A stretch of DNA of 54,929 nucleotides from an uncultured Thermotogae bacterium (GCA_964649445.1 CAZYPS010000005.1:1-54929), one strand, 5' to 3'. Counted from the first letter of the stretch, positions 10,412 through 45,321 are shown. The notes: generated by a model from the letters alone, not told the origin. A program made the numbers and translations.

Positions 10412-10423
10412 TTACCACCCCCT
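10412..10423 (-). promoter_or_regulatory. Extra upstream SD-like element (STAB-SD-like) of SBP gene
   Basis: AGGGGGTGGTAA about 64 nt before the ATG, which has its own AAGGAGGT SD. Confidence 0.55.
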
Positions 10424-10690
10424 AATTGATTTCTCATCAAGATGTTATCACACGAATCATTTATCTCAACTTAACGATGAACGTTGAATATCGAGATTGA
10501 CTACATCACAATTCCGGACGAAAACATGTATTATTAAGTGGACTAACAAAGCCGACACGTAAAATATCTATGACACAGTCTATTACTGGCTTTAGTCAAT
10601 CATTTATTTCTACCCCCTACCGTCGTATAATTTTTGTAAAGAAACCTAAAAGTAATACCTAAGATCAATAACATTCCTTCAGAGGTCAGC

Positions 10691-12493
10691 ATGACAGAAA
10701 GGGAAAATAATCGGGTAGCTATAGACGGGAGAAAACTCTACAACGCTTTCGCGAAAGGTGCGGAAAAGGTCGTCGAAAAGAGAAAGCTGCTCGACGATAT
10801 AAACGTATTTCCCGTCGCTGACGGTGATACGGGCAAAAACATGGCCCAAACCCTCCGGTCGATAGCAAAGAACACCAAACCGGATAATTCTGTCGGCACC
10901 GTGAGCAAAGACATGGCTCAGGTCGCGCTCCTGAGTTCGAGAGGCAATTCCGGTATAATACTCGCTCAGTTTTTCAACGGGATAAGCAAAGCAACCGGCC
11001 AAAGAGACCATCTTCAACTAACCGAGTTTGCCCGAGCAATGAAAGTTGGAGCAGATCACGCCTATAAAGCCACCAATCAGCCCGTAGAAGGAACTATCCT
11101 GACGGTAATGAGAGAATGGGCTCAATCTCTCCACGAGTACGCCTCCAACAAAAACGACCTTTCGGAGTCGCTGGAGAATTCTCTCGAAGTCGCAAATAAC
11201 TCCCTCAAGAAAACTAAATCCCGATTAGAAGAGTTAAGAGAAGCAAATGTAGTGGATGCGGGCGCAAAGGGGTTTGTTCTTTTTCTTGAAGGCATATCAG
11301 CATTTTTCAGAAAAGGTGAAACAGCCACTTTCGAGAGTATAGGTGAACTGGAAAAAGAAACCTCCCATCATATCGGCGAAGACCAGGGAATAACCGGACC
11401 ACGTTACTGCACGGAAGTAGTTCTAACTGGCGAAAGCCTGAAAGCCGAAGAATTAGGGAACCTGGCTGAAGGATACGGGGAATCTCTCGTAATTGCCGGT
11501 TCGGAAGGTCAGTACCACATTCATATCCACACGGATAATCCAGCTGAGTTAATCTACGAACTGGAAAAAACCGGTACAGTGGCCGAGCAAAAAGTCGACG
11601 ACATGCAAAAACAGCACGAAGCAGTCTACGAAAGATCCACGGAGATCGCTATTGTAACTGACTCTACCTGCGACCTCCCCCGGGAAGTAATAGACGAACT
11701 TCCGATCTATCCGGTGCCGCTAACTGTAAATTTTGGCGACGATCAGTTTCTCGATAAGTCTACCATCACCCCGGACCAATTTTACCGAATGCTGGAAGAA
11801 TTAGAAGAAGACGAGGAATATCCCTCTAGCTCTCAACCTTCGATAGGCCAGTTTAAACAAAAATATTCTTTTCTGCTCGACCACTACGATTCAATTTTAT
11901 CTCTCCACATCGCGGGGGAATTAAGCGGGACCGTAGAGGCCGCACGAAAAGCGGCAAAAGAAGTCGACGAGTCGAGGATCTCCGTCGTGGATACGAGACA
12001 GCTTTCGACCTCTCTGGGTTTAATAGTCCAGGAAGTGGCAAACCGGCTGGAGGACGGTTTGGACCGTCAGGAGCTGGTCGACCTGACCAAAAAACTGCGG
12101 AGGAAAGCAAAAATACTGGTCAGCGTAAAGGACCTAAAGTATATGGTTAGAGGAGGAAGGGTAAATCGACTTGAGGGATTTCTCGCCCGGTTACTCAACT
12201 TTAAACCAATAATTTCACTTGATAAGACGGGTAATTCGGAACTTCACGGCAGGCCACTGCTCAGGAGAACAAATTTCGATCAGATTATCGAGATGATTTC
12301 CAACCCCCATAACGATTCTAAGGTAAAAAGATACGCCATCGGTCACGTCCGGGCGAAAGAAGAAGCCGAAGAACTGGCGGGAACCATCGAAGAAGAGATC
12401 GGTCTCTCTCCGGACTACACTATGGATATTTCTCCGCTAATCGGGGCCCACGCCGGTATAGGCGCCCTTTCAGTATCTTATCTAACGGAGTAA
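10691..12493 (+). CDS. DAK2 (FakA-like)-DegV (FakB) fusion, fatty acid kinase
   Basis: [33 protein letters not shown] and YCTE (DAK2/FakA), then [22 protein letters not shown] and IGAHAG (DegV). Confidence 0.92.
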
Positions 12494-12494
12494 T

Positions 12495-13277
12495 ATGTTC
12501 ATCCAAAGTCCGATCGCAATAGTTCTGGCAGTATTTCTCTACATGACGCTTGTTTATCTATTAGCTCAGGTAAAATCCGACTATTCGGTGGTAGATATTT
12601 TTTGGGGTCCGGGATTCGCTCTGGTCGGATTACTTTCCCTACTTCTGTCACCCGAACTAACCATTAGAGGCCTGATCGTTACTATTCTGGTGGTAATTTG
12701 GGGGTTTAGGCTTGGTTATCACGTATTTAAACGCAATTGGGGAAAACCGGAGGATTTCCGGTATAAGGAAATGCGGGAAAACTGGGAAGGTCGGGCTTAC
12801 CTTATAAGCTACGTGAGAATCTTCCTTCTCCAGGGTCTGTTGATGCTTGTCATCTCTTACCCCCTTATACTGATTCATTTCCTTCCGAAAGAAGGTATCG
12901 GACTACTCGATTATCTTGGTATATTGGTCTGGCTAGTTGGATTTGGATTCGAGGTCATTGGGGATTACCAGCTGTCGGACTTCATAAAACACCGGAAGTC
13001 CGAAGAGGACAGAATTATGACGGAGGGCCTCTGGCAGTACACCAGACACCCAAATTACTTCGGAGAAGCTCTTCTGTGGTGGGGAATTTACCTTTTAACT
13101 GTATCGATCCCCTATGGCTGGGCAGGAATAATAAGTCCAATAGCGATAGGTTATCTCCTCCTTTTCGTCTCAGGAGTTCCTCCCCTGGAAAAGAGGTACG
13201 AAGACGTTGAAGAATACCAGAAATACGCAAAACGAACGAACAAATTTTTCCCCTGGTTTCCCCGAGATAAGGATTGA
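12495..13277 (+). CDS. DUF1295 / steroid 5-alpha-reductase-like membrane protein
   Basis: [30 protein letters not shown]...WWG, SGVPPLE. Confidence 0.9.
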
Positions 13278-13354
13278 AAAACTAAAACTCCGGAAACCAG
13301 AGGGTTAAATAAGAAACCGGAATCAGGTTCGACTCTCCCCTCCTAATTTTACAG

Positions 13355-13625
13355 TTATCCCTGTTTTTAAGGACAACTGACCGATAATAAACAACAAAAT
13401 GTGGAAAACTATGTGGATAACCTGTTAAAAACGGGGTAAAATCGTGATTTTTTGTGGAAAAGTCCTGTTGAAAAGAAACCTTGAAAGTTGTCCACATTTG
13501 TTTTCAAGAGAAAAACAGGGATGTCCACAGTTCCTCCACAAAATTCTCCCCAACCTCCAGGCTTATATGACCGGAGAAGATAAATAGTTTTCCACACAAA
13601 AAGTTTCCCCAGTTACTACTACAGT
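13355..13625. other. oriC: Probable replication origin (oriC): DnaA-box array plus DnaA-trio-like repeats
   Basis: Perfect TGTGGATAA 13412-13420; TGTGGAAAA 13400-13408 and 13453-13461; TGTTGAAAA 13466-13474; TTGTCCACA 13488-13496; ATGTCCACA 13521-13529; TCCTCCACA 13532-13540; TTTTCCACA 13588-13596; then GTTTCCCCA and TACTACTAC 13614-13622, followed by AT-rich DNA. Confidence 0.8.
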
Positions 13626-13666
13626 AAAAAGATGACTAACAAACCAAGCAGTACCTTAATATTAAT

Positions 13667-13695
13667 TTGAAAATAAATGTTGTTTTTATTATGCT
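13667..13695 (+). promoter_or_regulatory. Putative promoter of the glycerol operon
   Basis: TTGAAA (13667-13672), 17 nt spacer, TATGCT (13690-13695). Confidence 0.55.
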
Positions 13696-13753
13696 AATTT
13701 TCGAGTTTGTTTAGCTTTTTAGGTAAAAGTAGTGCAGTTTGAGGAGATTATTC

Positions 13754-15205
13754 ATGAATAAATACGATGTGATAGTGATTGGGGCAGGGGTTATTGGCAC
13801 GGGAATAGCACGTGAATTATCCAGATACAGGGTAAGTGTTGGTGTACTGGAAAAGGAACCGGATGTGAGCTGGGGAACGACAAAAGCAAATAGCGGAATA
13901 GTTCACGCAGGTTATGACGCTAAACCCGAAACCATCAAAGCTTCTTTTTCGGCTCCGGGGAACAAAAAGTACAACGAATGGACAGATCCACTTTCCGTAC
14001 CTTTCAAGCGACTTGGATCCTTCGTTTCTACAAAAGACAGGTCTCAGTTGGATAAGCTTCATAGGTTAAAAGAACAAGGTGAAGAGAACGGAGTTGACCA
14101 GCTGGAAATAATTGAGGATAAGGATAGGATTCGAAAGCTGGAACCAAATATCTCTGATGATGTCGAAGCAGTTCTCCATGCACCTACGGCCGGAGTTGTC
14201 GCTCCTTACAAGTTGACCATTGCCCTTTACGAAAATAGCCGTAAAAACGGCGTGGATTTCCACTTTAACTCACCTGTCAAAGGAATAGATACGTCGGATG
14301 AATCCGAAGACGGCTCGGGGTTCAGGGTAAAGACTCAAGACGAAGAGTTCGAGGGAGACTACGTGATAAACGCTGCCGGGCTTTTCTCGGGGAAGATTGC
14401 CGGTATGGTTGGGGATAATAGCTTTTCTATCTTTCCGGCTCGGGGTGAGTATCACCTTCTGGACAGCGAACTACAGGGATTCGTAAACAAGATCAACTTT
14501 CCTTTACCCTCAGAAGAAAGTAAAGGTATCCTGGTAACGCCTGCCGCTGAAGGAAGTATAATTTTTGGCCCAAACCACGAGCCACTAGAGGAACCTTCTC
14601 TCGCGACCACTAAGGAAGGGCTTGACGAAGTATTCCAGGGAGCGGTGGATTTATTCCCGGAAATCGATACAAGCAAAATCGTTACAAACTTTGCCGGGTT
14701 GCGAGCCAAGGCGGGCTCTGATGATTTCGTTATCGGAGAATCGGACGCTGTTGATAACTTTATAAACGTCGGAGGGATTCAGTCCCCGGGTCTCACAGCC
14801 GCCCCGGCAATTTCGGATCACGTAGTAGGTCTGCTTGAGGAAAAGGGGCTGGAACTGGTAACTGATCCCGGCTTCGATCCGAACAGGGAACCTATTCCCC
14901 GGTTCGCAGAGATGAATCCCGACGAGATAGCTGAATATACCGAAAACCTGGACGCGGCAAAGGAAATAGTCTGCCGGTGTGAGGAAGTTACCCGGGCGGA
15001 GATAGAGGAGGCAATAGATCGAGGAGCAGATACGCTGGACGGAATAAAATTCAGGACGAGGTCGAGAATGGGAAGCTGTCAGGGAGGTTTTTGTACTCCC
15101 AAACTCGTAGAAATACTGGCGAAAAAGTTAGGTATTTCTCCCAGAGAAGTAACAAAGAGGGGAGATAATTCCTACTTGCTGGCAGAGGAGACCAAAGAGG
15201 GTTGA
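13754..15205 (+). CDS. FAD-dependent glycerol-3-phosphate dehydrogenase, GlpA/L2HGDH-like, with C-terminal BFD-like [2Fe-2S] domain
   Basis: ATG 13754 after GAGGAG; GAGVIG, TKANSGIVHAG, GIQSPGLTAAPA, and VCRCE...GSCQGGFC cysteine motifs; located in a glpK operon. Confidence 0.85.
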   Translation: MNKYDVIVIGAGVIGTGIARELSRYRVSVGVLEKEPDVSWGTTKANSGIVHAGYDAKPETIKASFSAPGNKKYNEWTDPLSVPFKRLGSFVSTKDRSQLDKLHRLKEQGEENGVDQLEIIEDKDRIRKLEPNISDDVEAVLHAPTAGVVAPYKLTIALYENSRKNGVDFHFNSPVKGIDTSDESEDGSGFRVKTQDEEFEGDYVINAAGLFSGKIAGMVGDNSFSIFPARGEYHLLDSELQGFVNKINFPLPSEESKGILVTPAAEGSIIFGPNHEPLEEPSLATTKEGLDEVFQGAVDLFPEIDTSKIVTNFAGLRAKAGSDDFVIGESDAVDNFINVGGIQSPGLTAAPAISDHVVGLLEEKGLELVTDPGFDPNREPIPRFAEMNPDEIAEYTENLDAAKEIVCRCEEVTRAEIEEAIDRGADTLDGIKFRTRSRMGSCQGGFCTPKLVEILAKKLGISPREVTKRGDNSYLLAEETKEG

Positions 15206-15208
15206 AAA

Positions 15209-16836: not shown

Positions 16837-16853
16837 ATCTCGGGAGGGTGGAT

Positions 16854-18392: not shown

Positions 18393-18434
18393 TGTGTTGG
18401 TTTTTTAATTCTGTAGTTCAAAAACAAATCGGAG

Positions 18435-19940: not shown

Positions 19941-19979
19941 ATATATACTCATTATTATTTTCGATAATTTTCGCTTTGC

Positions 19980-24156: not shown

Positions 24157-24432
24157 ATGGGCTGGATGCGCTGGACTTTACCGTCGGCTTGTTTCTTTGG
24201 CAGTATAGTTGCGATGTTAATTTTCCTTGCCTTCTACGATACCCGGTCTCCCGGCTATCCCCGGAAAGGGCTTTTGCCAATTAAGACCACCCGGGGAGAT
24301 AGAGTATTCATGAGCCTGCTGGCTCTAGGGTCAACTGTATTTATTTGGCTTGCAGTGGTGCCCTCTATGTCTCTCTGGTGGGCAATGGGTATTTCGGCGG
24401 TTGAGGCAGCAATAATCCTTAGGTGGTTCTGA
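24157..24432 (+). CDS. glpU: DUF2160 small membrane protein (GlpU-like)
   Basis: WM.WT, R.GLLPI.TTRGDR.F; sits in the position expected in glpSTPQUV. Confidence 0.85.
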   Translation: MGWMRWTLPSACFFGSIVAMLIFLAFYDTRSPGYPRKGLLPIKTTRGDRVFMSLLALGSTVFIWLAVVPSMSLWWAMGISAVEAAIILRWF

Positions 24433-24454: not shown

Positions 24455-24466
24455 AGGAGGTGGTAA
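24455..24466 (+). promoter_or_regulatory. Extra upstream SD-like element (STAB-SD-like) of SBP gene
   Basis: AGGAGGTGGTAA about 88 nt before the glpV ATG; no start codon at canonical spacing. Confidence 0.6.
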
Positions 24467-24554: not shown

Positions 24555-26387
24555 ATGCATTCTAACTTGAGGAGAAATTCGAAATGGCTGGGGTTAACCC
24601 TGGCATTGATTATGGCTCTTACATTTAGTCTGGTTAGCGCCACGGCCCAGGATTGGCCTGATGAACCCAATTACCCGGAAATTACCAAAGAAGAAGCCAT
24701 GGAATGGGCGGAATCACAGTGGGGTCCTCTTTCCGAATACGAAGAAGCCGCGGTGGATTGGGTTTTTAAAGAATTTCAACCTTCCACGCTTACCGTAAAA
24801 GAACAAATCGAAGAGATGGTCTGGTTTGCCCACGCGACTGAGCCCTATCGCGGCATGTCAATCGACTCGGTAGCGGAAACCATTAAAACTCACGTCTGGG
24901 AATCCGAAGTACTGACGGATGCCTTTAAAGATATAACCGGAATCAACGTGACCCATAATATAATTGACGAAGGAGACTTAATAGAAAAACTCCAGACTCA
25001 GCTTGCTACCAGACAGAAGATCTACGACGTTTATGTAAATGACGCGGACTTAATAGGGACGCACGTAAGGCTCCAGGATGCAGTCAACTTGGAGAATTAT
25101 ATGAACGGTGAGGCTGAAGACATCACCAACCCCAACCTCGACCTTGATGACTTCCTAAACCCTGAGTTCGGTCAAAACTACGAAGGGGAACAAATACAGA
25201 TACCTGATCAACAATTCGCGAACCTATATTGGTTCCGCTACGATTGGTTTAACGACCCGGAACTGAAGGAGAAGTTCAAAGATCGATACGGATACGAGCT
25301 TGCCGTGCCCCAGAACTGGGCGGCTTACGAGGATATTGCCGAGTTCTTCACCGAGCACGTCGATAGAGAAGACGTTCCCAATCCTCCAGAGAAGGACGCG
25401 ATCTTCGGTCACATGGACTACGGCAAGAAAGGACCGTCTCTCGGCTGGAGGTTTACCGACGCCTGGCTCTCAATTGCGGGAGTAGGCTCCAAAGGTCTCC
25501 CGAACGGTCTCCCGGTTGACGAGTGGGGAATCAGAGTAAGGGATAGAAAGCCGGTAGGTTCCGTTGTAGCCCGGGGAGGTGCTTTGAATAGTCCGGCAGC
25601 TTACTACGCCACCGAGAAGTACGTAGAGTGGCTCGACGAGTACGCTCCTCCCTATGCGTCTTCGATGAGGTGGTCCGAGGCAGGTCCGGTTCCCTCTCGA
25701 GGTACGATCGCCCAGAGGCCGTTCCAGTACATCACGTTCCTTTCGGCTGATCCGTTTACTGCGCCTGATTCTTCGGTAACCGACGAAGAAGGTAACCCAT
25801 TGTGGCGAGTCGCACCAACTCCGCACGGCAGGTACTGGGAAGAAGGAATGAAGGTAGGTTACCAGGATGCCGGAAGCTGGACCATTTTGAGGATGACAAA
25901 GGGTAAGAAACGTGAAGTTTCCTGGCTCTGGGCCCAGTTTGCCGTATCGAAGAGCATTACTATGAGGAAGTTTGAAGTAGGTAGAACCCCGATTCGGGAA
26001 TCGACCGTAAATTCGGACTACTGGGAAAAGCACGAAGGTGAACTGGGTGGTTTGATCACTTTCTATCAGTCACCCGTGGAGCACATGTGGACGGACACGG
26101 GCATGAACGTGCCCCATTATCCGCTACTGGCGGAACAATGGTGGAAAGAAATTGGCCTGGCGGTTACCGGCGAAAAATCGCCAAAACAGGCGATGGATGA
26201 CCTGGCGGAGACACAGGACGAGCTAATGGCAGAACTGCGTCTGCCAAAGTATTCTCCCGACCTCAACGAAAAGAGGTCCAGAGAATACTGGCTTGAGCAG
26301 GAGGGTTCTCCGAAAGCGGAAAGACCGCCAGAAGATCCGGAGACAGTTCCTTATGACGACCTTTTGGAACAGTGGGAAGAAGAATAA
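24555..26387 (+). CDS. glpV: Glycerol ABC transporter substrate-binding protein (GlpV-like)
   Basis: Signal peptide; EFQPSTL, PDQQFANLYWFRYDWF, GHMDYGKK..SLGWRFTDAWLS, PNGLPVDEWGIR, GYQD.GSWT. Confidence 0.9.
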   Translation: MHSNLRRNSKWLGLTLALIMALTFSLVSATAQDWPDEPNYPEITKEEAMEWAESQWGPLSEYEEAAVDWVFKEFQPSTLTVKEQIEEMVWFAHATEPYRGMSIDSVAETIKTHVWESEVLTDAFKDITGINVTHNIIDEGDLIEKLQTQLATRQKIYDVYVNDADLIGTHVRLQDAVNLENYMNGEAEDITNPNLDLDDFLNPEFGQNYEGEQIQIPDQQFANLYWFRYDWFNDPELKEKFKDRYGYELAVPQNWAAYEDIAEFFTEHVDREDVPNPPEKDAIFGHMDYGKKGPSLGWRFTDAWLSIAGVGSKGLPNGLPVDEWGIRVRDRKPVGSVVARGGALNSPAAYYATEKYVEWLDEYAPPYASSMRWSEAGPVPSRGTIAQRPFQYITFLSADPFTAPDSSVTDEEGNPLWRVAPTPHGRYWEEGMKVGYQDAGSWTILRMTKGKKREVSWLWAQFAVSKSITMRKFEVGRTPIRESTVNSDYWEKHEGELGGLITFYQSPVEHMWTDTGMNVPHYPLLAEQWWKEIGLAVTGEKSPKQAMDDLAETQDELMAELRLPKYSPDLNEKRSREYWLEQEGSPKAERPPEDPETVPYDDLLEQWEEE

Positions 26388-26425: not shown

Positions 26426-26456
26426 AGCCCAGCAGGTTTTTTCTGCTGGGCTTTTT
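26426..26456 (+). terminator. Rho-independent terminator
   Basis: AGCCCAGCAG / CTGCTGGGCT stem followed by TTTT. Confidence 0.85.
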
Positions 26457-26640
26457 CATTTACCAATACCAACTGGTAATGCTCCAGAGCTTTCCCTGAG
26501 GGTGAATTAGACTGTAGTTGGTTCAGGTGAGTCAAAAATAATTTCTTTACTTATTTTTACGAAATGGATAAAATATTGGACGAGTGAGCCCGATACTTAT
26601 TTTAAATGAGAAATGAAATTGGGCATAATAGATAATGATC

Positions 26641-26652
26641 AGGAGGTGGTAA
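26641..26652 (+). promoter_or_regulatory. Extra upstream SD-like element (STAB-SD-like) of SBP gene
   Basis: AGGAGGTGGTAA, identical to 24455-24466, about 93 nt before the ugpB ATG. Confidence 0.6.
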
Positions 26653-26745
26653 GAGCTAGGGGATAATAAATTGTTAACTTGAAGAATGCGGAAGTATTCT
26701 TCAAAAAAAGAAAAAACGAAAAACTTTTATTAATGGGGGGTTTCC

Positions 26746-28053
26746 ATGCTTAAAAATAAGAGTTTATTTGCTCTTGCCCTAATTTCTGTGCTGGCATTTA
26801 GCGTGACATTTGTGGGACTGGCTCAGGAGCCGGTAGAGATAAAATTCTGGCACGCGATGAGCGGAGCCAGGTTGGAACCGGTAAATACCCTTGTGGAAAG
26901 GTTTAATGAATCTCATCCCAACATCGAAGTTGATGCCACCTTTACTGGGAGCTATGAAGAGACGCTCAATCAAGCTATAACTGCATCACAGGGTGGCAAC
27001 CCGCCAAACGTTATTCAGACATACGAAGTCGGGACCCAGATGATGTGGGATAGCCCCTATGTCGTGCCGATTGAAGATATTGCTGAACCCGGCGAGGTAG
27101 ACTGGGGAGACTTCCTGAACGTAGTTCGAAGGTATTACACCAACAGGGAAGGGAAGCTTGTCTCCATGCCGTTTAATTCTTCTACCGCAATTCTCTATTA
27201 CAACAAAGATATGTTTAGAGAAGCGGGCCTCGACCCGAATGACCCGCCTTCTACTTACGAAGAGGTAGAAGAGATCGGGAGCCAGCTGGTAGAGTCGGGC
27301 GCGGCAAGAAACGCGCTGACCTTTGGTTGGCCTACGTGGATTTTCGAACAGAGCCATTACTGGACTGATAGCCTCTACGTTAATAATGGTAACGGCAGGG
27401 AAGGTAGGGCGACCGAGGTCCTGTTTAACCGTGAACCTGGAAAGAAAATAATGGAGTCCTGGGCTGACTGGGAAGATCAGGATATCCTGGTTTACGGTGG
27501 AAGAGAGTACGAACCCGATTCCGCCTTCCTGTCTCAGCGAGTTGCCATGTTGGCTCAATCAACTTCGCACGCGAAGGATATCGTAGAGACCGCCCCGTTC
27601 GATGTTGGCACCACGTTCCTGCCCCGACCGGCATGGGCAGATCGCGGCGGTACGACGATTGGCGGTGCCTCGCTCTATATCTTTGAAGACGACCAGGAGA
27701 AAATGGAGGCGGCCTGGGAGTTCGTCAAATTCATAAGCAGCACTGAAAGTGCGGTTTACTGGCACAAACAGACGGGCTACTTCCCGATCAGGTACAGTGC
27801 CCTGCGAAAATTGATGAATGAAGGTTGGTTTGCGGACAACCCGAATTTCCTTACCGCGTTTCTTCAGGTGCTAACCGCTAAACGGACTCCGGCAACCTCG
27901 GGTGCCATAGTTGGACGCTTCCCACAGATCAGAGATATCGTTGACGAAGCGGTTACGAATATATTTGCCGATGAAAAGACCGTGGACGAAGCCCTGGATG
28001 AAGCTGCGAGAAAGGCGAATCGAGTGATCGAAAAATACAATGAGTCGGCATAG
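26746..28053 (+). CDS. ugpB: sn-glycerol-3-phosphate/glycerophosphodiester ABC substrate-binding protein (copy 1)
   Basis: FWHAMSG, QTYEVGT, SMPFNSST.ILYYNKD, GWPTW, IGGASL, WHKQTGYFP, PQIR. Confidence 0.88.
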   Translation: MLKNKSLFALALISVLAFSVTFVGLAQEPVEIKFWHAMSGARLEPVNTLVERFNESHPNIEVDATFTGSYEETLNQAITASQGGNPPNVIQTYEVGTQMMWDSPYVVPIEDIAEPGEVDWGDFLNVVRRYYTNREGKLVSMPFNSSTAILYYNKDMFREAGLDPNDPPSTYEEVEEIGSQLVESGAARNALTFGWPTWIFEQSHYWTDSLYVNNGNGREGRATEVLFNREPGKKIMESWADWEDQDILVYGGREYEPDSAFLSQRVAMLAQSTSHAKDIVETAPFDVGTTFLPRPAWADRGGTTIGGASLYIFEDDQEKMEAAWEFVKFISSTESAVYWHKQTGYFPIRYSALRKLMNEGWFADNPNFLTAFLQVLTAKRTPATSGAIVGRFPQIRDIVDEAVTNIFADEKTVDEALDEAARKANRVIEKYNESA

Positions 28054-28086: not shown

Positions 28087-28135
28087 ACGGGGGGTTAAAG
28101 GGGTTTGGCCTTTAGCTCCCCGTTCTTTTTCTTTT
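28087..28135 (+). terminator. Intercistronic hairpin/terminator after SBP
   Basis: ACGGGGGGTTAAAGG / CCTTTAGCTCCCCGT (with G-U pairs), followed by a T-rich tract. Confidence 0.7.
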
Positions 28136-30361: not shown

Positions 30362-30379
30362 GGGGGGTGATCGATGTAG
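30362..30379 (+). promoter_or_regulatory. Extra upstream SD-like element followed by an ATG-TAG start-stop
   Basis: GGGGGGTGATC then G-ATG-TAG, about 95 nt before the ugpB2 ATG. Confidence 0.55.
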
Positions 30380-30469
30380 GGATAAAAGTTCATATTTGGT
30401 TGGTTTATAAAAAGTAGTGAGTAAAAGTTGGTTGCCTAACTGTTGAAACTTTAATAAAGGGGGTAAAAT

Positions 30470-31786
30470 ATGAAAACGAAATTGGTTAGCCTAGTTCTTA
30501 TTTTCTCTCTCCTGTTAACCGGTATTACTTTTGCGGGTGCGGCTCAGGAAGAAACGGAGATTGATTTCTGGTATGCATTATCCGGTACGATCGCCGAAAC
30601 CACCTTGGAATTAGTAGAAGGTTTTAACGAAACTCACCCCAATATTCACGTCAATGCTGTAAACAAAGGTACATACTCCGAAGCTTTAACCTCTGCAGTC
30701 GCTGCTTATCGGTCAGGTAATGCTCCTGATATAGTTCAGGTCTACGAGGTAGGTACTCAGACGATGCTGGATAGTGGAGCAGTACACCCGCTTTGGAAAT
30801 TAGTTGAAGAATACGATTTAAATATCGACACTGAGAACTTTATCGCGCCGGTAAAAAGTTACTTCGAAGTAGACGGCAAGCTTGCTTCTCTGCCATTTAA
30901 CTCTTCCACGCCGGTAATGTATTACAACAAGGACGCTTTTGAAGAAGCCGGCTTGAATCCAAACCATCCTCCCAGAACTTTCGCCGAGGTCGAAGAGATG
31001 GGGAAACAGCTAATAAATAACACTGACGTTAAGTACGCCCTGACCGCCGGATGGCCGTCCTGGACATTGTTAGAAAATATGCATACCTGGCACAGACAAC
31101 CAATTGCCAACAACAATAACGGATACAGCGATTACGCTACTGAACTCAAAGTCAACCAGGATTTCAGTGTGGAACTTTTTGAGACCTACAGGAATTGGCA
31201 GCAGGAAAACGTATTTACCTACCAGGGCCGGGAAGGATCGCCCAACCCCAGCTTTTTAGGCGGGGACATCGGTATGATTATTACTTCGACTGCGTATCTA
31301 AGTGGATTTAAAGAAGCAGCTGAATTTGAAATAGGTACAACCTACTTGCCGCACATGCAGGGATACCCCCGTGGGAACTCATTAATAGGTGGCGCAACGT
31401 TGTGGGCGTTGAAAGGTAACTCCGAGGAGGAACAGGAAGCAACAGCCAAGTTCCTGGAATACGTTGCTCGGACGGACAACCAGGTGTTCTGGCATAAAAA
31501 TACCGGTTACTTCCCCGTCACCAATAGCGCTGTCAGGCGATTACTGGACGAAGGATGGTTTGCCGATAATCCAAATTATCTGACCGCTTTTCTCCAGATG
31601 TCCACCGGGGTTACTACTGAAGGGAACAAAGGGCTGAGGCTCGGTAATTTCGTTTCAATTCGGAACGTCCTGCTAAACCAAATCGAATCTATGTTCGGTG
31701 GGGACAGAACTCCGGAACGAGCTTTAAATAGAGCAGTTAGAGAAGTTAATGGAGTGCTGGATAATTACGTATCGTCTCAGGAATAA
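30470..31786 (+). CDS. ugpB: sn-glycerol-3-phosphate/glycerophosphodiester ABC substrate-binding protein (copy 2)
   Basis: QVYEVGTQTM, SLPFNSSTPVMYYNKDAF, GWPSW, IGGATLW, WHKNTGYFP, KGLRLGNF..IR. Confidence 0.9.
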   Translation: MKTKLVSLVLIFSLLLTGITFAGAAQEETEIDFWYALSGTIAETTLELVEGFNETHPNIHVNAVNKGTYSEALTSAVAAYRSGNAPDIVQVYEVGTQTMLDSGAVHPLWKLVEEYDLNIDTENFIAPVKSYFEVDGKLASLPFNSSTPVMYYNKDAFEEAGLNPNHPPRTFAEVEEMGKQLINNTDVKYALTAGWPSWTLLENMHTWHRQPIANNNNGYSDYATELKVNQDFSVELFETYRNWQQENVFTYQGREGSPNPSFLGGDIGMIITSTAYLSGFKEAAEFEIGTTYLPHMQGYPRGNSLIGGATLWALKGNSEEEQEATAKFLEYVARTDNQVFWHKNTGYFPVTNSAVRRLLDEGWFADNPNYLTAFLQMSTGVTTEGNKGLRLGNFVSIRNVLLNQIESMFGGDRTPERALNRAVREVNGVLDNYVSSQE

Positions 31787-31797: not shown

Positions 31798-31829
31798 AGA
31801 GTAGGGGGTGTTACTCCCCCTACTCTTTT
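31798..31829 (+). terminator. Intercistronic hairpin/terminator after SBP
   Basis: Perfect 11-bp stem AGAGTAGGGGG / CCCCCTACTCT followed by TTT. Confidence 0.75.
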
Positions 31830-33753: not shown

Positions 33754-33765
33754 AAGGGGGTGTAA
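33754..33765 (+). promoter_or_regulatory. Extra upstream SD-like element (STAB-SD-like) of SBP gene
   Basis: AAGGGGGTGTAA about 115 nt before the phnD ATG. Confidence 0.5.
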
Positions 33766-33879
33766 GTAGGGTCCGATAAGTTGTTAAGTTGTGTTGGTTT
33801 TACAGTTAAATGTAAGTCGGTGACCGAAACCTTAACTAGACTCAATTAACTTAAAACCAAAATAAACAGGGGGATAAAA

Positions 33880-34782
33880 ATGAATAAAAGACGAAACAGC
33901 TTTTTAATAGCCGGTATTTTGCTACTGAGTTTCTTACTCGTCACGACTGTCGGGTTTGCCCAGGACGGAGAGGACTGTGCTAACCCGGACTCACTAACTT
34001 TCAGCGTAATTCCGACCGAAGATATCGCCCTCCACGCTGAGCGCTATCAGCCGTTACTTGATTGGATGAAGGAAAAGACCGGCAAGAGTATAGAATTCTA
34101 TGCACCGACTAGCTATAACGGCGTTATCGAAGCTATGAGGTCTGACTTCGTAGATATTGCCGGATTTGGTGCGTTTTCATATATCCTTGCCCATCAAAAG
34201 GCCGATGCTCAGGTATTTTCCATGAGGATAGACTCTCGAACTGGCGAACAAGGTTACTATTCCTATATGGTAACCAAGAGTGACTCAGGAATTGAGTCGG
34301 TCGAAGACCTGGAAGGTAAGACCTTTGCCTTTACCGATCCCGGTAGCACTTCGGGCAAACTTATTCCCAGTTATATATTCAAGAAAGAGGGCATAAATAC
34401 GGATGAATTTTTAAATCGCACGATCTTTGCAGGTGGTCACCAGTCCGCAGTTTTGGCCGTAAAAAGAGGGCAGGTTGACGCGGCTGCCGTCGCCAGTACC
34501 GTATATCAGCGGATGGCTAATAGAGAGGAAATTGATAAGGACAACGTAGTAATCTTCCGCAAATCGTCGCTGCTGCCCCTTGCTCCTCAGACTTACAGGG
34601 GAGACCTCTGTGATAGTCTAAAACAAGATATAGAGGAAGCTTACTTCACATTTGCGGAAGAGGCACCAAATGCTGACAAGCTACTTGAGCCAATGGACGC
34701 TACGAGGTTTGAGTCGGCAGAGGATTCTGACTTCGACCGAATTCGAGATATAATCGACATAATGGACGTCGAGGTCGGTTAA
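33880..34782 (+). CDS. phnD: Phosphate/phosphite/phosphonate ABC substrate-binding protein
   Basis: Signal peptide; SYNGVIEAM, G.FSY, DL.GKTFAFTDPGSTSG.L.P, GGH, G.VDAA. Confidence 0.9.
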   Translation: MNKRRNSFLIAGILLLSFLLVTTVGFAQDGEDCANPDSLTFSVIPTEDIALHAERYQPLLDWMKEKTGKSIEFYAPTSYNGVIEAMRSDFVDIAGFGAFSYILAHQKADAQVFSMRIDSRTGEQGYYSYMVTKSDSGIESVEDLEGKTFAFTDPGSTSGKLIPSYIFKKEGINTDEFLNRTIFAGGHQSAVLAVKRGQVDAAAVASTVYQRMANREEIDKDNVVIFRKSSLLPLAPQTYRGDLCDSLKQDIEEAYFTFAEEAPNADKLLEPMDATRFESAEDSDFDRIRDIIDIMDVEVG

Positions 34783-34808: not shown

Positions 34809-34849
34809 AAGGAGGCTGGGTTTTTCGCTAAACCCAGCCTCCTTTTTTT
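34809..34849 (+). terminator. Intercistronic hairpin/terminator after SBP
   Basis: 15-bp stem AAGGAGGCTGGGTTT / AAACCCAGCCTCCTT followed by a T-run. Confidence 0.8.
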
Positions 34850-37309: not shown

Positions 37310-37347
37310 AAAGGTTTAAGGAAAATAGAAGTCTCTAAAGGTTAAAT

Positions 37348-38232: not shown

Positions 38233-38327
38233 TCGAAAGTTGTAGGGAGGTATGAGTTAGGCCACGTAGCCTGGAGCCCTGGAGGCTGTCCAGTGGGGAT
38301 TTTGGCTTAAATTTTAGACAAAAACAA

Positions 38328-39413: not shown

Positions 39414-39468
39414 GCCCAAGGTTGGTAGAATTTCACATTTTTTCCTGCTGGACGTGAAGGAGGCACAA

Positions 39469-40257: not shown

Positions 40258-40349
40258 CAACGATGATATTTTCTTTTTATGAGTCCGATTGAATACCTTG
40301 CCTTGCTAGTAAGGTTTATTGCTTGTGATATTAACTAACTTTTCCCTTC

Positions 40350-40530
40350 AGTCAATTTCCCGCCCGCCCGGGCGGAGCTTGTAGAAAACCTCTTTACAAT
40401 TAACGGCTGCATACTTCAAAAACGCGAGACCCGGCAGACAATCGAGCCCACCTCTGAGCTTTGCGCCGGATAAGAAATATCATCTCACATAACAACCAGC
40501 AGTTCTTAAGAGATGTATCCTCGATTGACT
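40350..40530 (+). mobile_element. Possible IS200/IS605-superfamily (IscB/omega-RNA-like) left-end remnant
   Basis: GTCAATTTCCCGCCCGCCCGGGCGGAGCTTG resembles, from memory, the GTCAA..CCC-hairpin-GGAGCTTG start of IscB/HEARO elements. AGTCAAT (40350) is complementary to ATTGACT (40524). No transposase or nuclease ORF is present. Confidence 0.35.
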
Positions 40531-40564
40531 ACTGGTAGTTGGTAAAATGACGTGAAGATGTACC

Positions 40565-41509
40565 CTAGATCGCCATATCGAGACCTTTATAAAGCAAGAA
40601 TGCGAAAAGAGCAGCTGCCGTAGGAGTAGCCACCCAGCCAATAACGATTTCGATTATCTTTCTAAAACTTACCGTGCTTGTACCTTTCACGAGTCCGACG
40701 CCGATTATTGCTCCTACTATGGCCTGAGAGGTGGAGACTGGGATACCAATTATGGAGAAAAAATGGACTGCAACAGCTGCAGCTGTCTGTGCTGCTACGG
40801 CAGAAAGGGGGCCGAGAGTAGTTATCCCTTTACCAACCGTTTCCGTGACCCGTCGTCCGTAAGTAAGCACACCAATAGAAAGAGAAATTCCACCCAGTAA
40901 GGCCAGCCAAGTCTGGTTTATTCCCAGTACAGTTAGGGGACCGACGGAGTTTCCAACGTCATTCGATCCGAGAGAAAACGCCACGTATGCTCCCGAAAGA
41001 ATTACCATATAGCTGAGTAGTTTGTCCCAGAAGGTCACCATTTTTACCCGTTTAAGGAAGAATGAAAGTATGTGGTAAAGAGTAAAACTCATAATTGCCG
41101 TGAGCGGGGGAGATATTACCCAGACTTCCCCTATGGTAATGACCTTAGAGAAATTTACGGCGTTTCCCATAGAAAGACCTGCACCTACTACCCCGCCCAC
41201 TATAGCCTGAGAGGTAGAGACGGGAACTTTGAAGAACGTTGCAAAAGTAACAAAGACGCCGGCGGAAAGCATGGCGGTGAGAACGCCCGTCATGTTGAGC
41301 GGGTTAGGAACTACCCCTTCCCCGATCGTTTTCATTACGTTATGGCTCTGAAGGAGAGCTCCCAGTACTACAAAGATCGCCACGACATAGACCATCTTGC
41401 GGTAAGAAATAAGGCCGGAGCCTACCGGGGTTCCGATACAATTGGCGGTGTCATTGGCTCCAATGTTCCATCCTACGTAAAAGCCCGCGACGATCAATAA
41501 AACTATCAT
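40565..41509 (-). CDS. Inorganic phosphate transporter, PiT family
   Basis: IGANDTAN and LGSNDVGN signature repeats; two PVSTSQAIVG motifs. Confidence 0.92.
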   Translation of the reverse strand: MIVLLIVAGFYVGWNIGANDTANCIGTPVGSGLISYRKMVYVVAIFVVLGALLQSHNVMKTIGEGVVPNPLNMTGVLTAMLSAGVFVTFATFFKVPVSTSQAIVGGVVGAGLSMGNAVNFSKVITIGEVWVISPPLTAIMSFTLYHILSFFLKRVKMVTFWDKLLSYMVILSGAYVAFSLGSNDVGNSVGPLTVLGINQTWLALLGGISLSIGVLTYGRRVTETVGKGITTLGPLSAVAAQTAAAVAVHFFSIIGIPVSTSQAIVGAIIGVGLVKGTSTVSFRKIIEIVIGWVATPTAAALFAFLLYKGLDMAI

Positions 41510-41539
41510 TCCTAATAATCAGGGGCCTGGAACATTGTG

Positions 41540-42247
41540 TTATCGGTTCGTCATAATCCTTATGAAGTTCGCGGCATTTTCAATATGATCCAGAATATTG
41601 TTGGCCTTGAGGGCAACCTGGATTAAGTGATACTTTTCTATTCCTTCCATGTTTTCGGAATTATAAATGGATTTTATCGCTTTTCTCGTTGTCTTATCGG
41701 CGCTGTGTTCCAGGTTGTTTATCTCTTCGATGGATTCTCGGACTTGGTCCAGTTTGCCCTCACCATCGCTGGTACCTTTTATAACCGCCCCGGCATTTAT
41801 GACCAGCTTGCTGTATTCTGAGACTGACTTTTCAAGAATATCGGCCAGACTATTCAGAGAATCCTTGTACTGATCAGGCAATTTATCCGTGAGATTTAAC
41901 AAAGGTAGTAATTCGGCAACATCCTGAGAGTTGTCGGCTATTTCATCCTGGTGCCATAGTAACGATAGCAGGTCCGATCTGGCAACGGGCATTAAAAGAT
42001 CGCTTCGAGGTAACTCCTTCCGAATTTCCTGTTTTTCCTGATCGGCTTCGAATTCGTAATTTGACACCATTTCTCCCTGTATTTCTTTTCCCTGAGTGTA
42101 ATCATGTAATTCTTCTACTAAAGCTTCGACGGTTGCCTCTACTTTTTCGGCGTGTTTAGATAACTGTTCAAATGGCGAAGTCTCAGTTAGATATCCGGCG
42201 AAGGAACGTTTGAAATTTTTAATCTTCTTAAAACTGAAAAACGACAT
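41540..42247 (-). CDS. DUF47 (PhoU-like) phosphate transport regulator
   Basis: E.EAD..K.EIR, PVARSDLL, QD.IAD, LEH.AD, D.IENAA; co-oriented with PiT. Confidence 0.88.
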   Translation of the reverse strand: MSFFSFKKIKNFKRSFAGYLTETSPFEQLSKHAEKVEATVEALVEELHDYTQGKEIQGEMVSNYEFEADQEKQEIRKELPRSDLLMPVARSDLLSLLWHQDEIADNSQDVAELLPLLNLTDKLPDQYKDSLNSLADILEKSVSEYSKLVINAGAVIKGTSDGEGKLDQVRESIEEINNLEHSADKTTRKAIKSIYNSENMEGIEKYHLIQVALKANNILDHIENAANFIRIMTNR

Positions 42248-42694
42248 TCTAACCCTCCAAATTTGCTACCGATAACCTTTAAATATTTTCATGCATATAA
42301 ATATATAGTTTAATTACCTTTATAAGGCTAGTATAATTAAGCAAATTGTTCAAGTGACAAATGACCAAGATGTTTTGTTAGCTTTGGGTTTTTTATTATT
42401 TTATACTGGACTTTTTGTTTTTCAGGCTCCTATTTAAAGTTTCCGGGCTTTACATCAATTGACCGAGGTTAACTTCGAAAATCGCCCGGCGAAAATTGTT
42501 TTAAACTCATGAACCCGGCTCAGGGGATGAGGCTTGCAAAAATCAATTTTCCCGGTTTGGTTTGAACTTTTACTCAAGAGGACCGGTTGATAATTAAACC
42601 AACCGGCTTATTCCCTCGTAGGGCTCGATCTGGAGTATTTCTGCTAGCTTTGGTAATTTAAATCAGCAATGAAGAAGAGGATTGTGGGATCGAG

Positions 42695-43567
42695 ATGAAT
42701 GAGAGCAAAAATAGAAATTTGTTAAATATTGCCCACAGAGGCGCCCGGAGTATAGCACCGGAGAATACACTGGTAGCTGGTAGAAAGGCTTACAGGGAAG
42801 GAGCGGATTTTTGGGAGTTTGACGTTCGACTTACCGGAGATGGAGAACTGATAGTTTTCCACGACGAAACTCTAACACGAACTACTGATGTTTGTGAAGT
42901 CTTTCCTGATAGAGATTATTACAGGGTAAGTAATTTCGATTTTTCCGAAATAAGACGGCTTGATGCGGGCAGCTGGTTTGGGGAATCGGATCCGTTTGGA
43001 GAAGTAAGCCGTGGTGCCATTTCTGGATCCGATTTGAAGTTGTATTCGGGTGTAGAAGTACCTTCGCTTCGGGAGGCTCTGGAGCTAACGAAGTACCTTG
43101 ATTGGAGGGCAAATATTGAACTTAAGTTTTCTAACGGGCGGGAGGCAAAAGTATTGGAAGAGCGAACCACCAGCGTTTTGCGGCAACTCGTTGATTTGGC
43201 TGAGGAATTGGGGGTGCTGAACAGGGTCGTAGTATCATCTTTCAGCCATGGAGCTATCGGGAAGCTAAAAAACTTTCACTCTGCAATAAAAGGTGCTTTG
43301 CTGGTTAAAGAGCCTTTGGCCAGACCTATAGAGTACCTGGAAGAATATAACGCCAAGATCCTTAATTTGAAGGAATCCGCGGTTCAGACGGAGGCGGGGC
43401 TCAGCAATATTAAGGAAATAGGTGGCGCTAGTCCCAAATACGCGGTAAATTTGTGGACCGTCAACAAAAAAGAAAAAATGAAGGAGTACCTCTTGAATCC
43501 GTTTATAGATGGGTTAGTTACTGATTATCCCGGTAGACTGTCGGAGGTTATTTCAGGGTCAGCTTAG
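42695..43567 (+). CDS. ugpQ: Cytoplasmic glycerophosphodiester phosphodiesterase
   Basis: IAHRGA...APENT, EFDV.LT.DG.L..FHD..L.RTT, NIELK, SSF, WTVN, G.VTDYP; no signal peptide. Confidence 0.92.
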   Translation: MNESKNRNLLNIAHRGARSIAPENTLVAGRKAYREGADFWEFDVRLTGDGELIVFHDETLTRTTDVCEVFPDRDYYRVSNFDFSEIRRLDAGSWFGESDPFGEVSRGAISGSDLKLYSGVEVPSLREALELTKYLDWRANIELKFSNGREAKVLEERTTSVLRQLVDLAEELGVLNRVVVSSFSHGAIGKLKNFHSAIKGALLVKEPLARPIEYLEEYNAKILNLKESAVQTEAGLSNIKEIGGASPKYAVNLWTVNKKEKMKEYLLNPFIDGLVTDYPGRLSEVISGSA

Positions 43568-43627
43568 CTGGTTAAGAATTATTGCTTGGAATAAGCACCA
43601 TTAATTTGAATGACTTCTTTGGTTTTC

Positions 43628-43661
43628 TTGACAATACCCTTTTATCTTCCTATGTTATAGT
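43628..43661 (+). promoter_or_regulatory. Promoter of DeoR regulator (probably leaderless transcript)
   Basis: TTGACA 43628-43633; TATGTT at 17 nt spacing and extended -10 TGTTATAGT 43653-43661; no SD before ATG 43668. Confidence 0.55.
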
Positions 43662-43667
43662 TTGATT

Positions 43668-44468
43668 ATGTCTGACATTCTTGCAGAAGAAAGAAGAAGA
43701 AAAATCTTAGAGGAGTTAGAGGCTGAAGGAACTGTTAAGACCGCCCAGCTGGCAAAACTATTTTCCGTTTCGGAAGTGACAATCCGCCGAGACCTCGAGG
43801 TTCTGAAGGAAGAAGGGAAATTGAAGAAGGTCCACGGTGGGGCAGTAGCGAACGAAAAGAACTTTCAGTCTTCCTATCACGGCGATACAATCACATTTGA
43901 GCCATCTTTTCAGGAAAAAGCTGAAGTAAATAAACAGGAAAAGGAAAAGATAGGAGAAAAAGCCGTTTCATTGATTAAAGACGGGAGTTCTGTCTTCATT
44001 GGTACGGGCACTACTACGATGCAGATCGTAAAAAATATTGGAGATAGGGCTGCCCTAACTGTGGTAACGAATTCTCTGAATCACGGGCTGGAGCTGGCGA
44101 GAACTCCCGAGGTAGAGGTATTAATAACCGGCGGGCAATTGCGAAAGAATACTTCCGCTTTAGTCGGCCCAATTGCAAAACGATCATTCGAGGAAATATA
44201 TGTCGATACATTATTCCTCGGGGTAAACGGAATCTCCATTGATCATGGTTATACGGTACCGTCGCTGAGAGAGGCGGACATGGCACGAAGTATTATGGGT
44301 ATGGCCGATGAAGTAATTATAGTGGCTGATTTTTCAAAGTTCGGTAAAGTAAGCCATGCAAAGGTGGCGGAAATTGACGGGGCGCATAGGATCATAACTG
44401 ACGATCAGGTCGACGATTCTTACAGGGAGGCACTTTCCGATATTGGGGTAGATCTGCTGGTGGCTTAA
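43668..44468 (+). CDS. DeoR/GlpR family transcriptional regulator
   Basis: ERR..IL, LA..FSVSEVTIRRDL..L, VHGGA, GTGTTT, VVTNS, ADFSKFG. Confidence 0.93.
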   Translation: MSDILAEERRRKILEELEAEGTVKTAQLAKLFSVSEVTIRRDLEVLKEEGKLKKVHGGAVANEKNFQSSYHGDTITFEPSFQEKAEVNKQEKEKIGEKAVSLIKDGSSVFIGTGTTTMQIVKNIGDRAALTVVTNSLNHGLELARTPEVEVLITGGQLRKNTSALVGPIAKRSFEEIYVDTLFLGVNGISIDHGYTVPSLREADMARSIMGMADEVIIVADFSKFGKVSHAKVAEIDGAHRIITDDQVDDSYREALSDIGVDLLVA

Positions 44469-44563
44469 AGTAAAAAGTATGAGACTGGAAGCTGGTCGGA
44501 ATAAAATTTTTATTATGTAAACTTGTCGTTTAACCTGATACCTGCTATCATCGGGGAGATAAC

Positions 44564-45286
44564 ATGACTGATTATTTGGAGAGTATAAAAGTAGAGCGAG
44601 AATCAATCAGCAGGAAAATAATAAGGCGAATATTAAAACACATTAAAAAAGTCGGCCTGAAGCCGGGGGACAAGCTTCCCTCCGAAAAGGAGCTTATGGA
44701 GAAAATGGAGGTAGGACGGTCCTCTATTAGGGAGGCTCTGCATGCACTTGTTACGGTGGATATTCTGGAGACGAAACCGGGAAAGGGATACTACGTAAAA
44801 AGGAAGTCGAATATATTTTGCCTGCCCGGTGGAAGCGAACTCGCGGAAGTATTGATCGAAGAGCAGGACTTCATGGCGTTGATCGAAGTAAGAAAGTTTC
44901 TGGAGAAGAAAACCGCCGTTCTTGCCTGTCGGAGGGCAACCGAAGATGATGTCGATAAGGTAAAAAGGGTTATGGATGAGATAAAAAATGCCGCCGATAA
45001 GGAGGAGAATATATCGGACGTTACGGTTAATTTACACCTGGCTCTGGCGGAAGCGACCAAAAATCCGATCATGGTCCAGCTTCTTGATCAAATAGTTCCA
45101 CTCATCGTGACCAAGGCCAGACTAATGGAATTACCACCCGAGAAAGATATGGAGATACACGATGGAGTGGCTAAAGCGCTTGAAAACAGAAACGAGGAAG
45201 AGCTCAAAGATTGGGTGGATGAACATCTGGATTATTTAAAGGAAAGATTTATCAGCACCTTAGAAAAACAGGAAACTAAAAATTAG
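44564..45286 (+). CDS. GntR family (FadR subfamily) transcriptional regulator
   Basis: LKPGDKLPSEKEL...VGRSSIREAL..L, G.GYYV; FCD domain with H..LA.AT.N. Confidence 0.92.
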   Translation: MTDYLESIKVERESISRKIIRRILKHIKKVGLKPGDKLPSEKELMEKMEVGRSSIREALHALVTVDILETKPGKGYYVKRKSNIFCLPGGSELAEVLIEEQDFMALIEVRKFLEKKTAVLACRRATEDDVDKVKRVMDEIKNAADKEENISDVTVNLHLALAEATKNPIMVQLLDQIVPLIVTKARLMELPPEKDMEIHDGVAKALENRNEEELKDWVDEHLDYLKERFISTLEKQETKN

Positions 45287-45312
45287 CCCAATTAGACTGG
45301 GTTAACCTTGTT

Positions 45313-45321
45313 GGAGGTGAT
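45313..45321 (+). promoter_or_regulatory. Extra upstream SD-like element (STAB-SD-like) of SBP gene
   Basis: GGAGGTGAT about 106 nt before the SBP ATG, which has its own GAGGTG SD. Confidence 0.5.

Follow-up and report, generated by a model that had tools for sequence, protein, structure and literature searches.

An orphan extended Shine-Dalgarno motif upstream of solute-binding protein genes in Bipolaricaulia and in part of the Chloroflexota

The DNA analyzed here, contig CAZYPS010000005.1 of an uncultured bacterium deposited as Thermotogae (GCA_964649445.1, positions 1-54929), is referred to in its full length of 54,929 nucleotides as the window. According to Pfam annotation of its 42 proteins, the window holds several ATP-binding cassette (ABC) uptake operons, and upstream of six genes encoding known or probable solute-binding proteins (SBPs) we identified an extended Shine-Dalgarno (SD) sequence, GGRGGTGRT, that is complementary to the 3' end of 16S rRNA and stands far ahead of the ordinary SD of the gene. 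This orphan SD is strongly associated with SBP genes throughout the genome, as a rule without a start codon of its own, and recurs before SBP genes of related genomes and of a second phylum. The initial annotation of the window had listed six such sequences, one before each SBP gene; all six were present where it had placed them, including two identical copies of AGGAGGTGGTAA. They are listed below, with distances to the start codon counted from the G that opens the GGRGG core and duplex energies calculated with the 16S tail.

10412..10423 (read 10423-10412), minus strand: orphan extended SD AGGGGGTGGTAA, 74 nt before the SBP start at 10348; -16.0 kcal/mol
24455..24466, plus strand: orphan extended SD AGGAGGTGGTAA, 99 nt before the SBP start; -17.0 kcal/mol
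26641..26652, plus strand: orphan extended SD AGGAGGTGGTAA, identical copy, 104 nt before the SBP start; -17.0 kcal/mol
30362..30372, plus strand: orphan extended SD GGGGGGTGATC, 107 nt before the SBP start; -19.7 kcal/mol
33754..33765, plus strand: orphan extended SD AAGGGGGTGTAA, 124 nt before the SBP start; -15.2 kcal/mol
45313..45321, plus strand: orphan extended SD GGAGGTGAT, 115 nt before the SBP start; -17.5 kcal/mol

Each site was followed by an A/U-rich spacer and then by an ordinary SD and an ATG, in agreement with the initial annotation. The signal in the window is positional and does not lie in raw abundance. The total numbers of the core heptamers were at chance level (GGAGGTG, 7 against 6.7 expected; GGGGGTG, 8 against 7.2 expected), while six of the 15 matches fell inside the six 70-nt sense-strand zones located 60-130 nt before the SBP genes, where 0.057 were expected (Poisson P = 4.7e-11).

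The window corresponds to contig C5 of a metagenome-assembled genome (MAG) of 2.26 Mb in 218 contigs, which is 89.6% complete and has a G+C content of 46.7%. The nearest matches of GlpK were from MAGs of Candidatus Bipolaricaulota/Acetothermia, some of which are labelled 'uncultured Thermotogae'. In this MAG a simple gene caller of our own defined 2035 genes covering 83% of the genome, with start codons and a signal-peptide rule likewise derived from rough scripts of our own, and SBP genes were located by searches with eight Pfam families. Both strands were scanned for 12-mers pairing strongly with the 16S tail, using a generic tail as duplex partner that was later checked against 16S ends. 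The scan returned 1418 sites at -13.5 kcal/mol or stronger, comprising 196 true SDs, 978 intragenic sites and 244 intergenic sites that are not SDs. When the intergenic sites lying in sense orientation upstream of a gene, with nothing in between, were plotted by distance, a sharp peak was seen, 40 of the 117 being located 75-100 nt from the start codon. The strict motif GG[AG]GGTG[AG]T was found 50-160 nt upstream of 29 of 53 SBP genes as compared to 10 of 1071 other genes, the comparison genes being those preceded by 70 nt or more of intergenic sequence (odds ratio 128, P = 1.7e-34). With the energy criterion of -13.5 kcal/mol or stronger, the corresponding numbers were 37 of 53 and 33 of 1056 (P = 5e-37). 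The genome-wide comparison that the initial annotation had proposed thus gave a strong bias toward SBP genes.

Carriers of the motif were found in seven of the eight SBP Pfam families counted, SBP_bac_3 being the family without any (0/2), and three more SBPs with twin-arginine translocation (Tat) signals, set aside by the crude signal-peptide rule, also have the motif. None of the LacI-type regulators with the Peripla_BP_4 fold has it. Outside the SBP set, good motifs 60-100 nt upstream were seen for two OpuAC SBPs, an alkaline phosphatase, a serpin, a purple-acid-phosphatase-like protein, a 1156-aa Exo_endo_phos protein and an aldose epimerase, all with signal peptides, as well as for two membrane HD-GYP proteins; the rest of the non-SBP carriers were weak sites, terminator arms or mis-called genes. 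Because most carriers outside the SBP set encode secreted scavenging enzymes, yet only five of 194 other signal-peptide-like genes have the motif, it marks exported nutrient-scavenging proteins, chiefly SBPs, and not exported proteins generally.

The same motif emerged from a de novo k-mer enrichment carried out without knowledge of the 16S sequence, where the top words were GGAGGTG, GGGGGTG and GGTGATA(G). Their reverse complements were nearly absent, with zero to two SBP leaders holding any of them, and the signal is therefore confined to the sense strand. GGRGGTGRT is usually followed by an A (43 of 67 cases), and nothing is conserved on either flank. The variation within the motif follows the rRNA. 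With the anchor GGNGGTGNNN, the two free positions facing a U of the 16S tail were purines in 57 and 55 of the 67 cases (genome-wide, 53% and 68%), and position 3 alternates between A (34 cases) and G (23 cases). Since A/G exchanges opposite U retain an A-U or G-U pair, this is the pattern predicted by pairing with rRNA. A search of the MAG with the 16S family gave no match; the last 29 nt of a 16S gene were, however, located at the edge of contig C124, and the 3' tail there reads GGAUCACCUCCUUU, as it does in the four relatives G007, G016, G020 and G023. The complementarity to the 16S 3' end claimed in the initial annotation was thereby confirmed against the organism's own tail. Median duplex energies were -16.6 kcal/mol for the orphan sites, -12.0 kcal/mol for the SDs of the SBP genes themselves and -10.2 kcal/mol for all genes. 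At position 10, directly after GGRGGTGRT, an A followed by a G was often observed, GGTGATAG occurring nine times as compared to zero in the background, whereas a C, the base able to pair with the following 16S position, was found in only five of 67 cases. Complementarity is thus apparently avoided beyond the free tail.

The distance from the motif to the start codon had a median of 87 nt and an interquartile range of 79-96 nt. A start codon (ATG, GTG or TTG) 4-12 nt downstream of the motif was present at 7 of 42 sites as compared to 32 of 126 shifted control windows, and the open reading frames (ORFs) that begin at these seven sites are 1-15 codons long, not conserved, and do not enter the downstream gene. 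The SBP leader has an A+U content of 67% and shows no more folding than shuffled sequence (mean minimum free energy z = -0.4, with 2 of 42 below -2), and the unpaired probability of the true SD region was close to that of the leader body (0.45 vs 0.47). No conserved second element was detected in the leaders, and in only 7 of 42 was the motif followed by pentamers resembling the anti-SD. In a position weight matrix scan, the best predicted -10 boxes were located 3-73 nt upstream of the motif, with no fixed spacing, and the promoter scan of the window returned promoter-like sites no more often than in shuffled sequence. One such site, 10469-10442 on the minus strand, ends 18 nt upstream of AGGGGGTGGTAA, and two more end at 26574 and 26629, before the orphan SD at 26641.

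Several details of the six sites concern the window itself. The orphan SD at 24455 lies inside a polycistronic operon, 23 nt past the stop codon of a 92-codon ORF (24157-24432) that appears hydrophobic by eye and itself follows the second permease gene. The sequence GGGGGGTGATC is followed by CG and then by ATG TAG, a minimal start-stop unit at 30374-30379, and this is the sole such case among the 42 sites. A TAGGG..ATAA extension downstream of three copies had also been described; it was seen at the three sites named, as TAGGG(0-3 nt)GATAA just after the orphan SD in three neighboring SBP leaders (26653-26670, 30373-30387 and 33766-33780), but is not a general feature, these three being the only ones among 42 leaders genome-wide. 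It may reflect chance, or a local signal shared by these adjacent operons, either an operator or one for processing. A further, weaker copy proposed at 50978 could not be upheld. This sequence, AAGGAGATGGT (50978-50988), lies two bases past the stop codon of a fused ATPase gene and 90 nt before a gene for a Cys/Met pyridoxal phosphate enzyme, not an SBP, and it was not counted as a member because its duplex energy of -10.0 kcal/mol is no stronger than that of an ordinary SD.

The motif is conserved well beyond this MAG. Seven other Bipolaricaulia genomes, two of them complete, were drawn from the same genus, the same family and three other families, and for each SBP_bac_8 leader the best-scoring site was taken, with the antisense strand as control. 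A site of -14.5 kcal/mol or stronger was present 60-140 nt upstream of 33 of 42 SBP_bac_8 genes, which as kin are not independent, and on the antisense strand of 0 of 42. Among 14 homologues of the SBP gene at 30470, two of which are the window's own, the best site was located 76-127 nt upstream in all, and 10 of the 14 sites reached -14.5 kcal/mol or stronger. Their leaders could not be aligned except at the two SDs, and as far as these sequences indicate the motif is the only leader element kept across the Bipolaricaulia. In a Paraburkholderia genome, used as an outgroup via the GlpK locus, the count was 0 of 13. Besides this genome, the cross-phylum sample consisted of members of the Chloroflexota. 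A MAG labelled Anaerolineales gave 4 of 5, with the fuller complement GAAAGGAGGTGR, and the total for the Chloroflexota was 13 of 22 (9 of 17 in a further, even sample of the phylum), with 0 of 22 on the antisense strand. In five Anaerolineae-like Chloroflexota (G025, G031, G041, G044 and G054), GAAAGGAGGTGA, a full 12-base complement of the 16S tail, was found 67-141 nt before lipoprotein-type SBP genes. The design is consequently not peculiar to the lineage of the window. The same tail complementarity in a second phylum, with the differently extended GAAAGGAGGTGA, points to pairing with rRNA and not to a lineage-specific regulator.

The six genes downstream of the orphan SDs belong to unrelated SBP families:

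8699..10348, minus strand: SBP gene, SBP_bac_5, 549 aa, signal peptide (Pfam E = 2.4e-83)
24555..26387, plus strand: probable SBP gene, 610 aa, signal peptide, last gene of an ABC operon (weak SBP_bac_1 match)
26746..28053, plus strand: SBP gene, SBP_bac_8/SBP_bac_1, 435 aa (Pfam)
30470..31786, plus strand: SBP gene, SBP_bac_8/SBP_bac_1, 438 aa (Pfam)
33880..34782, plus strand: SBP gene, Phosphonate-bd, 300 aa (Pfam)
45428..46945, plus strand: SBP gene, SBP_bac_5, 505 aa (Pfam)

Strong Pfam matches were obtained for five of the six (SBP_bac_5 twice, SBP_bac_8/SBP_bac_1 twice, and Phosphonate-bd). The protein encoded by 24555-26387 had no Pfam match at 1e-5 and matched SBP_bac_1 weakly, at 22.7 bits; it also has a signal peptide and is encoded in the context of an ABC operon, and is probably an SBP. 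Elsewhere in the window (52318-53784), and again on contig C16 (23660-25117), genes for MttB-family methyltransferases are located near OpuAC-type SBP genes. This neighborhood suggests the use of glycine betaine or other quaternary amines, which would be expected for an organism of saline sediment.

At the 3' side, each of the six SBP genes is followed directly by a hairpin. All six were found by a terminator scan, and each is followed by a T-rich tract:

8655..8680, minus strand: terminator-like GC hairpin between the SBP gene, which it follows directly, and the permease genes; -27.3 kcal/mol
26426..26452, plus strand: terminator hairpin after the SBP gene 24555-26387; -20.7 kcal/mol
28087..28123, plus strand: terminator-like hairpin after the SBP gene 26746-28053 (terminator scan)
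31798..31826, plus strand: terminator hairpin after the SBP gene 30470-31786 (terminator scan)
34809..34844, plus strand: terminator hairpin after the SBP gene 33880-34782 (terminator scan)
46970..46995, plus strand: terminator-like hairpin after the SBP gene 45428-46945 (terminator scan)

One arm of these hairpins had itself appeared as a candidate in the energy scan: GAGTAGGGGGTG, the 5' arm of the hairpin at 31798..31826, was rejected as a false orphan SD. For all genes in the MAG with a downstream gene on the same strand, we asked for a hairpin located directly after the gene and before the next one. Hairpins of -15 kcal/mol or stronger were found after 48 of 51 SBP genes as compared to 99 of 1363 others (P = 4e-47). 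The combination of a 5' ribosome site with a 3' hairpin in unrelated transporter families, put forward in the initial annotation, is thus a systematic layout, with the 5' motif spread over seven SBP families. Stable hairpins directly after the SBP gene of ABC operons are known, an example being the repetitive extragenic palindromic (REP) sequence between malE and malF of Escherichia coli. As there, such a hairpin would yield an excess of SBP over the membrane components; the hairpins observed here differ in being joined with a dedicated 5' element.

The most parsimonious common denominator of these data is, we infer, a docking site for the 30S subunit that would act independently of tRNA, of the kind known as stabilizing SD (STAB-SD) or upstream SD (uSD). 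The mRNA of an SBP would then carry, in order, a start-less and near-maximal SD (GGRGGUGRU), an unstructured A/U-rich leader, an ordinary SD, the SBP frame and a terminator-like hairpin. Pairing of the motif with nine bases of the free 16S 3' tail would allow the 30S subunit to dock without initiator tRNA, and because there is no start codon to translate from, the docked subunit could not leave by translating and would persist as a bulky obstacle near the 5' end. There it may shield the leader and the SBP cistron from decay entering at the 5' end. The candidate enzymes that would be held off are RNase Y, a scanning RNase E/G and possibly a beta-CASP nuclease, but not RNase J. The hairpin at the other end would stop 3' exonucleases and partly terminate transcription, and between them the two elements would make the SBP segment long-lived, highly translated and more abundant than the permease and ATPase cistrons. 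That a docked 30S subunit protects SBP mRNA from decay dependent on the 5' end stands, in our judgment, at about an even chance. We favor this reading because the 3' protective hairpin accompanies the element, because a start-less maximal SD suits a persistent obstacle, and because of the STAB-SD precedent.

In that precedent, the STAB-SD of Bacillus thuringiensis cry3A is described as stabilizing the mRNA by stopping RNase J1 (PMC4113751), and STAB-SD-like motifs are described before inlA, inlC and uhpT of Listeria (PMC5449094). The motif of the Bipolaricaulia resembles these in being an SD-like sequence in front of the gene that is complementary to the 16S 3' end and, as judged here from its sequence, directs no initiation; a further likeness is the pairing with a 3' stem-loop, termed a 'retroregulator' in the accounts of those systems (PMC4113751; PMC5449094). 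It differs in extent, the earlier cases concerning individual genes, while here SBP and exoenzyme genes carry the motif as a class. The sequences also differ: the cry3A motif is GAAAGGAGG, and the motif described here uses the GGUGAU side of the 16S tail. In E. coli, start-less uSDs were reported by 30S-seq to bind the 30S subunit without tRNA and to raise expression strongly (10.1101/2025.04.04.647229). They share with the present motif an SD-like sequence lacking a start codon and located more than 35 nt upstream, in the 5' untranslated region (UTR) in our case provided that the motif is transcribed, as we assume. As described in that source, the E. coli sites are scattered, mostly weak or mild and variable in position, and belong to riboswitch, toxin, heat-response and translation genes, whereas here a single near-maximal motif is found at a narrow distance, on one functional class and conserved across a phylum. 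Bound ribosomes have furthermore been described as hindering the scanning of RNase E according to the strength and persistence of the SD, so that sites further along the mRNA are shielded by a ribosome sitting in the 5' UTR (PMC9943677); a start-less super-SD would maximize that strength and stay in place. That work concerned engineered upstream ORFs (uORFs) in E. coli, whereas RNase E/G and RNase Y of the Bipolaricaulota are predicted from genome sequence.

Three observations speak against protection by a docked subunit. None of 25 Bipolaricaulia genomes, which include two complete ones, gave an RNase J (TIGR00649) match above the cut-off, whereas RNase J1 is the enzyme stopped in the STAB-SD system. 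The search for RNase J suggested by the initial annotation was therefore negative, and because the enzyme was not found, the strict STAB-SD mechanism is not supported here and is not simply transferable. In addition, the motif has a fairly fixed spacing to the start codon and not to the predicted promoters, which is not obviously predicted by a pure roadblock at the 5' end and fits a role in translation equally well. Finally, the motif is missing from 16 of the 53 SBP genes and present before a few genes for cytoplasmic proteins. Regarding the nucleases that are encoded, RNase Y was found in 24 of the 25 Bipolaricaulia genomes and an RNase E/G homologue likewise in 24 of 25, and all five motif-bearing Chloroflexota genomes have RNase J. 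Weak RNase J-like matches in G022 and G023 were rejected as generic MBL/RMMBL proteins, and tblastn gave no match in the genome of the window. A CPSF-like beta-CASP protein was present in 11 of the 25 Bipolaricaulia genomes, including all 10 that are at least 90% complete; its loci are G007:C110, G012:C77 and G016-G024, with open-frame lengths of ~470-620 aa. It was found in only two of 14 MAGs of the same genus and was not found in the present MAG. The CPSF-like beta-CASP family includes 5'-3' exonucleases, and this protein could be an unrecognized 5'-3' nuclease of a lineage lacking RNase J.

The fixed distance to the start codon is accounted for better if the motif is a standby site or upstream ribosome-binding site (uRBS), which would preload the 30S subunit on the leader for transfer to the true start and so raise initiation, with an effect on stability that need not be primary. 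The A/U-rich and unstructured leader would let a subunit slide, and there are precedents in E. coli: mutation of the uSD of focA at -213 is reported to lower expression ~10-fold (10.1101/2025.04.04.647229), and tisB is described as having a standby site ~100 nt before its ribosome-binding site (RBS) (PMC7708055), a loading distance similar to that seen here. In tisB, however, as presented in that source, the RBS is locked in structure and the site consists of a single-stranded stretch and a 5' structure, whereas the SBP leaders have an accessible RBS and contain an SD as the upstream site. Standby in the classical sense, as for tisB and the MS2 coat gene, is needed where the RBS is sequestered, while the true SDs of the SBP genes are good and no more paired than their leaders, and a nine-base duplex of such tightness would be expected to retain a subunit and not release it. 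On balance we consider a role in translation of the standby or uRBS kind the main alternative, but a less likely one. A single motif on one functional class, SBPs and secreted scavenging enzymes, resembles a regulon, and a trans-acting regulator of uptake, either a C-rich small RNA mimicking the 16S tail or an RNA-binding protein, might be its target-reader; GcvB, for comparison, controls SBP mRNAs of enterobacteria post-transcriptionally. The genome in fact has a dispersed two-hairpin repeat of ~115-140 nt (C148:2440-2566 and C167:2130-2269, with fragments on C12, C33, C62, C124, C155, C181 and C191), whose single-stranded end tail resembles the 16S 3' tail and holds a nine-base complement of the GGGGG variant of the motif. 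This repeat nevertheless looks like a mobile palindromic element, Rfam gave no match in the window at gathering thresholds nor on the repeat loci at E <= 0.01 apart from the 16S end, and the 16S-tail complementarity recurs in the second phylum with another extension, which makes a regulator of this kind improbable. A CsrA-type site was rejected, as the alternation of A and G at position 3 breaks the GGA core that such proteins need.

A signal at the level of DNA, that is, a promoter or operator element of a common regulator of uptake genes with only incidental likeness to an SD, would fit the position of the motif in the promoter-proximal part of the intergenic regions, where a -10-like box sometimes lies only 3-20 nt upstream. 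The motif is not palindromic, occurs on the sense strand only (antisense, 0/42 and 0/22) and has no fixed spacing to predicted -10 boxes. Its variation is confined to purine exchanges opposite U of the rRNA, and the motif keeps the same register with the 16S tail in two phyla; we regard this explanation as very unlikely. Least credible, to the point of being nearly negligible, is that the motifs are ordinary SDs of short uORFs or start-stop units. The ATG-TAG after the site at 30362 is of this form, but usable start codons are rarer downstream of the motif than in the control windows, none of the ORFs reads into the gene, and the information content downstream of the motif is close to zero. 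The uORF explanation was rejected on these grounds, and one outcome that the initial annotation had named as fatal to its proposal, a motif driving translation of real uORFs, did not appear.

Start-less SDs as such are already known, from cry3A, from a few Listeria genes and, since 2025, from scattered sites in E. coli. In the literature outside subscription journals and supplements, we found no account of an upstream SD that is class-wide on SBP genes and conserved through a phylum, and none pairing 'Acetothermia' with 'Shine-Dalgarno'. Here the start-less SD is a rule for a whole gene class, extending over seven unrelated SBP families, a candidate phylum and part of a second. Together, the motif and the 3' hairpin are a marker of highly expressed uptake genes for the genomes of uncultured organisms, and could be used as a compact expression cassette; the motif by itself warns gene callers of false starts. 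With about 40 natural replicates per genome for the effect of a parked 30S subunit, and with RNase J encoded by the Chloroflexota carriers but not detected in the Bipolaricaulota, these organisms also offer a natural test of the need for that enzyme. A more far-reaching possibility, which we put forward as speculative and rather unlikely in its full form, is that the start-less super-SD serves as a phylum-spanning post-transcriptional 'address label' of the uptake regulon in Bipolaricaulota and Anaerolineae-like Chloroflexota, where a parked 30S subunit would block RNase Y or RNase E/G without any need for RNase J. If this were true, the lifetime or translation of all uptake mRNAs would follow the supply of free 30S subunits, which is a readout of the growth state of the cell.

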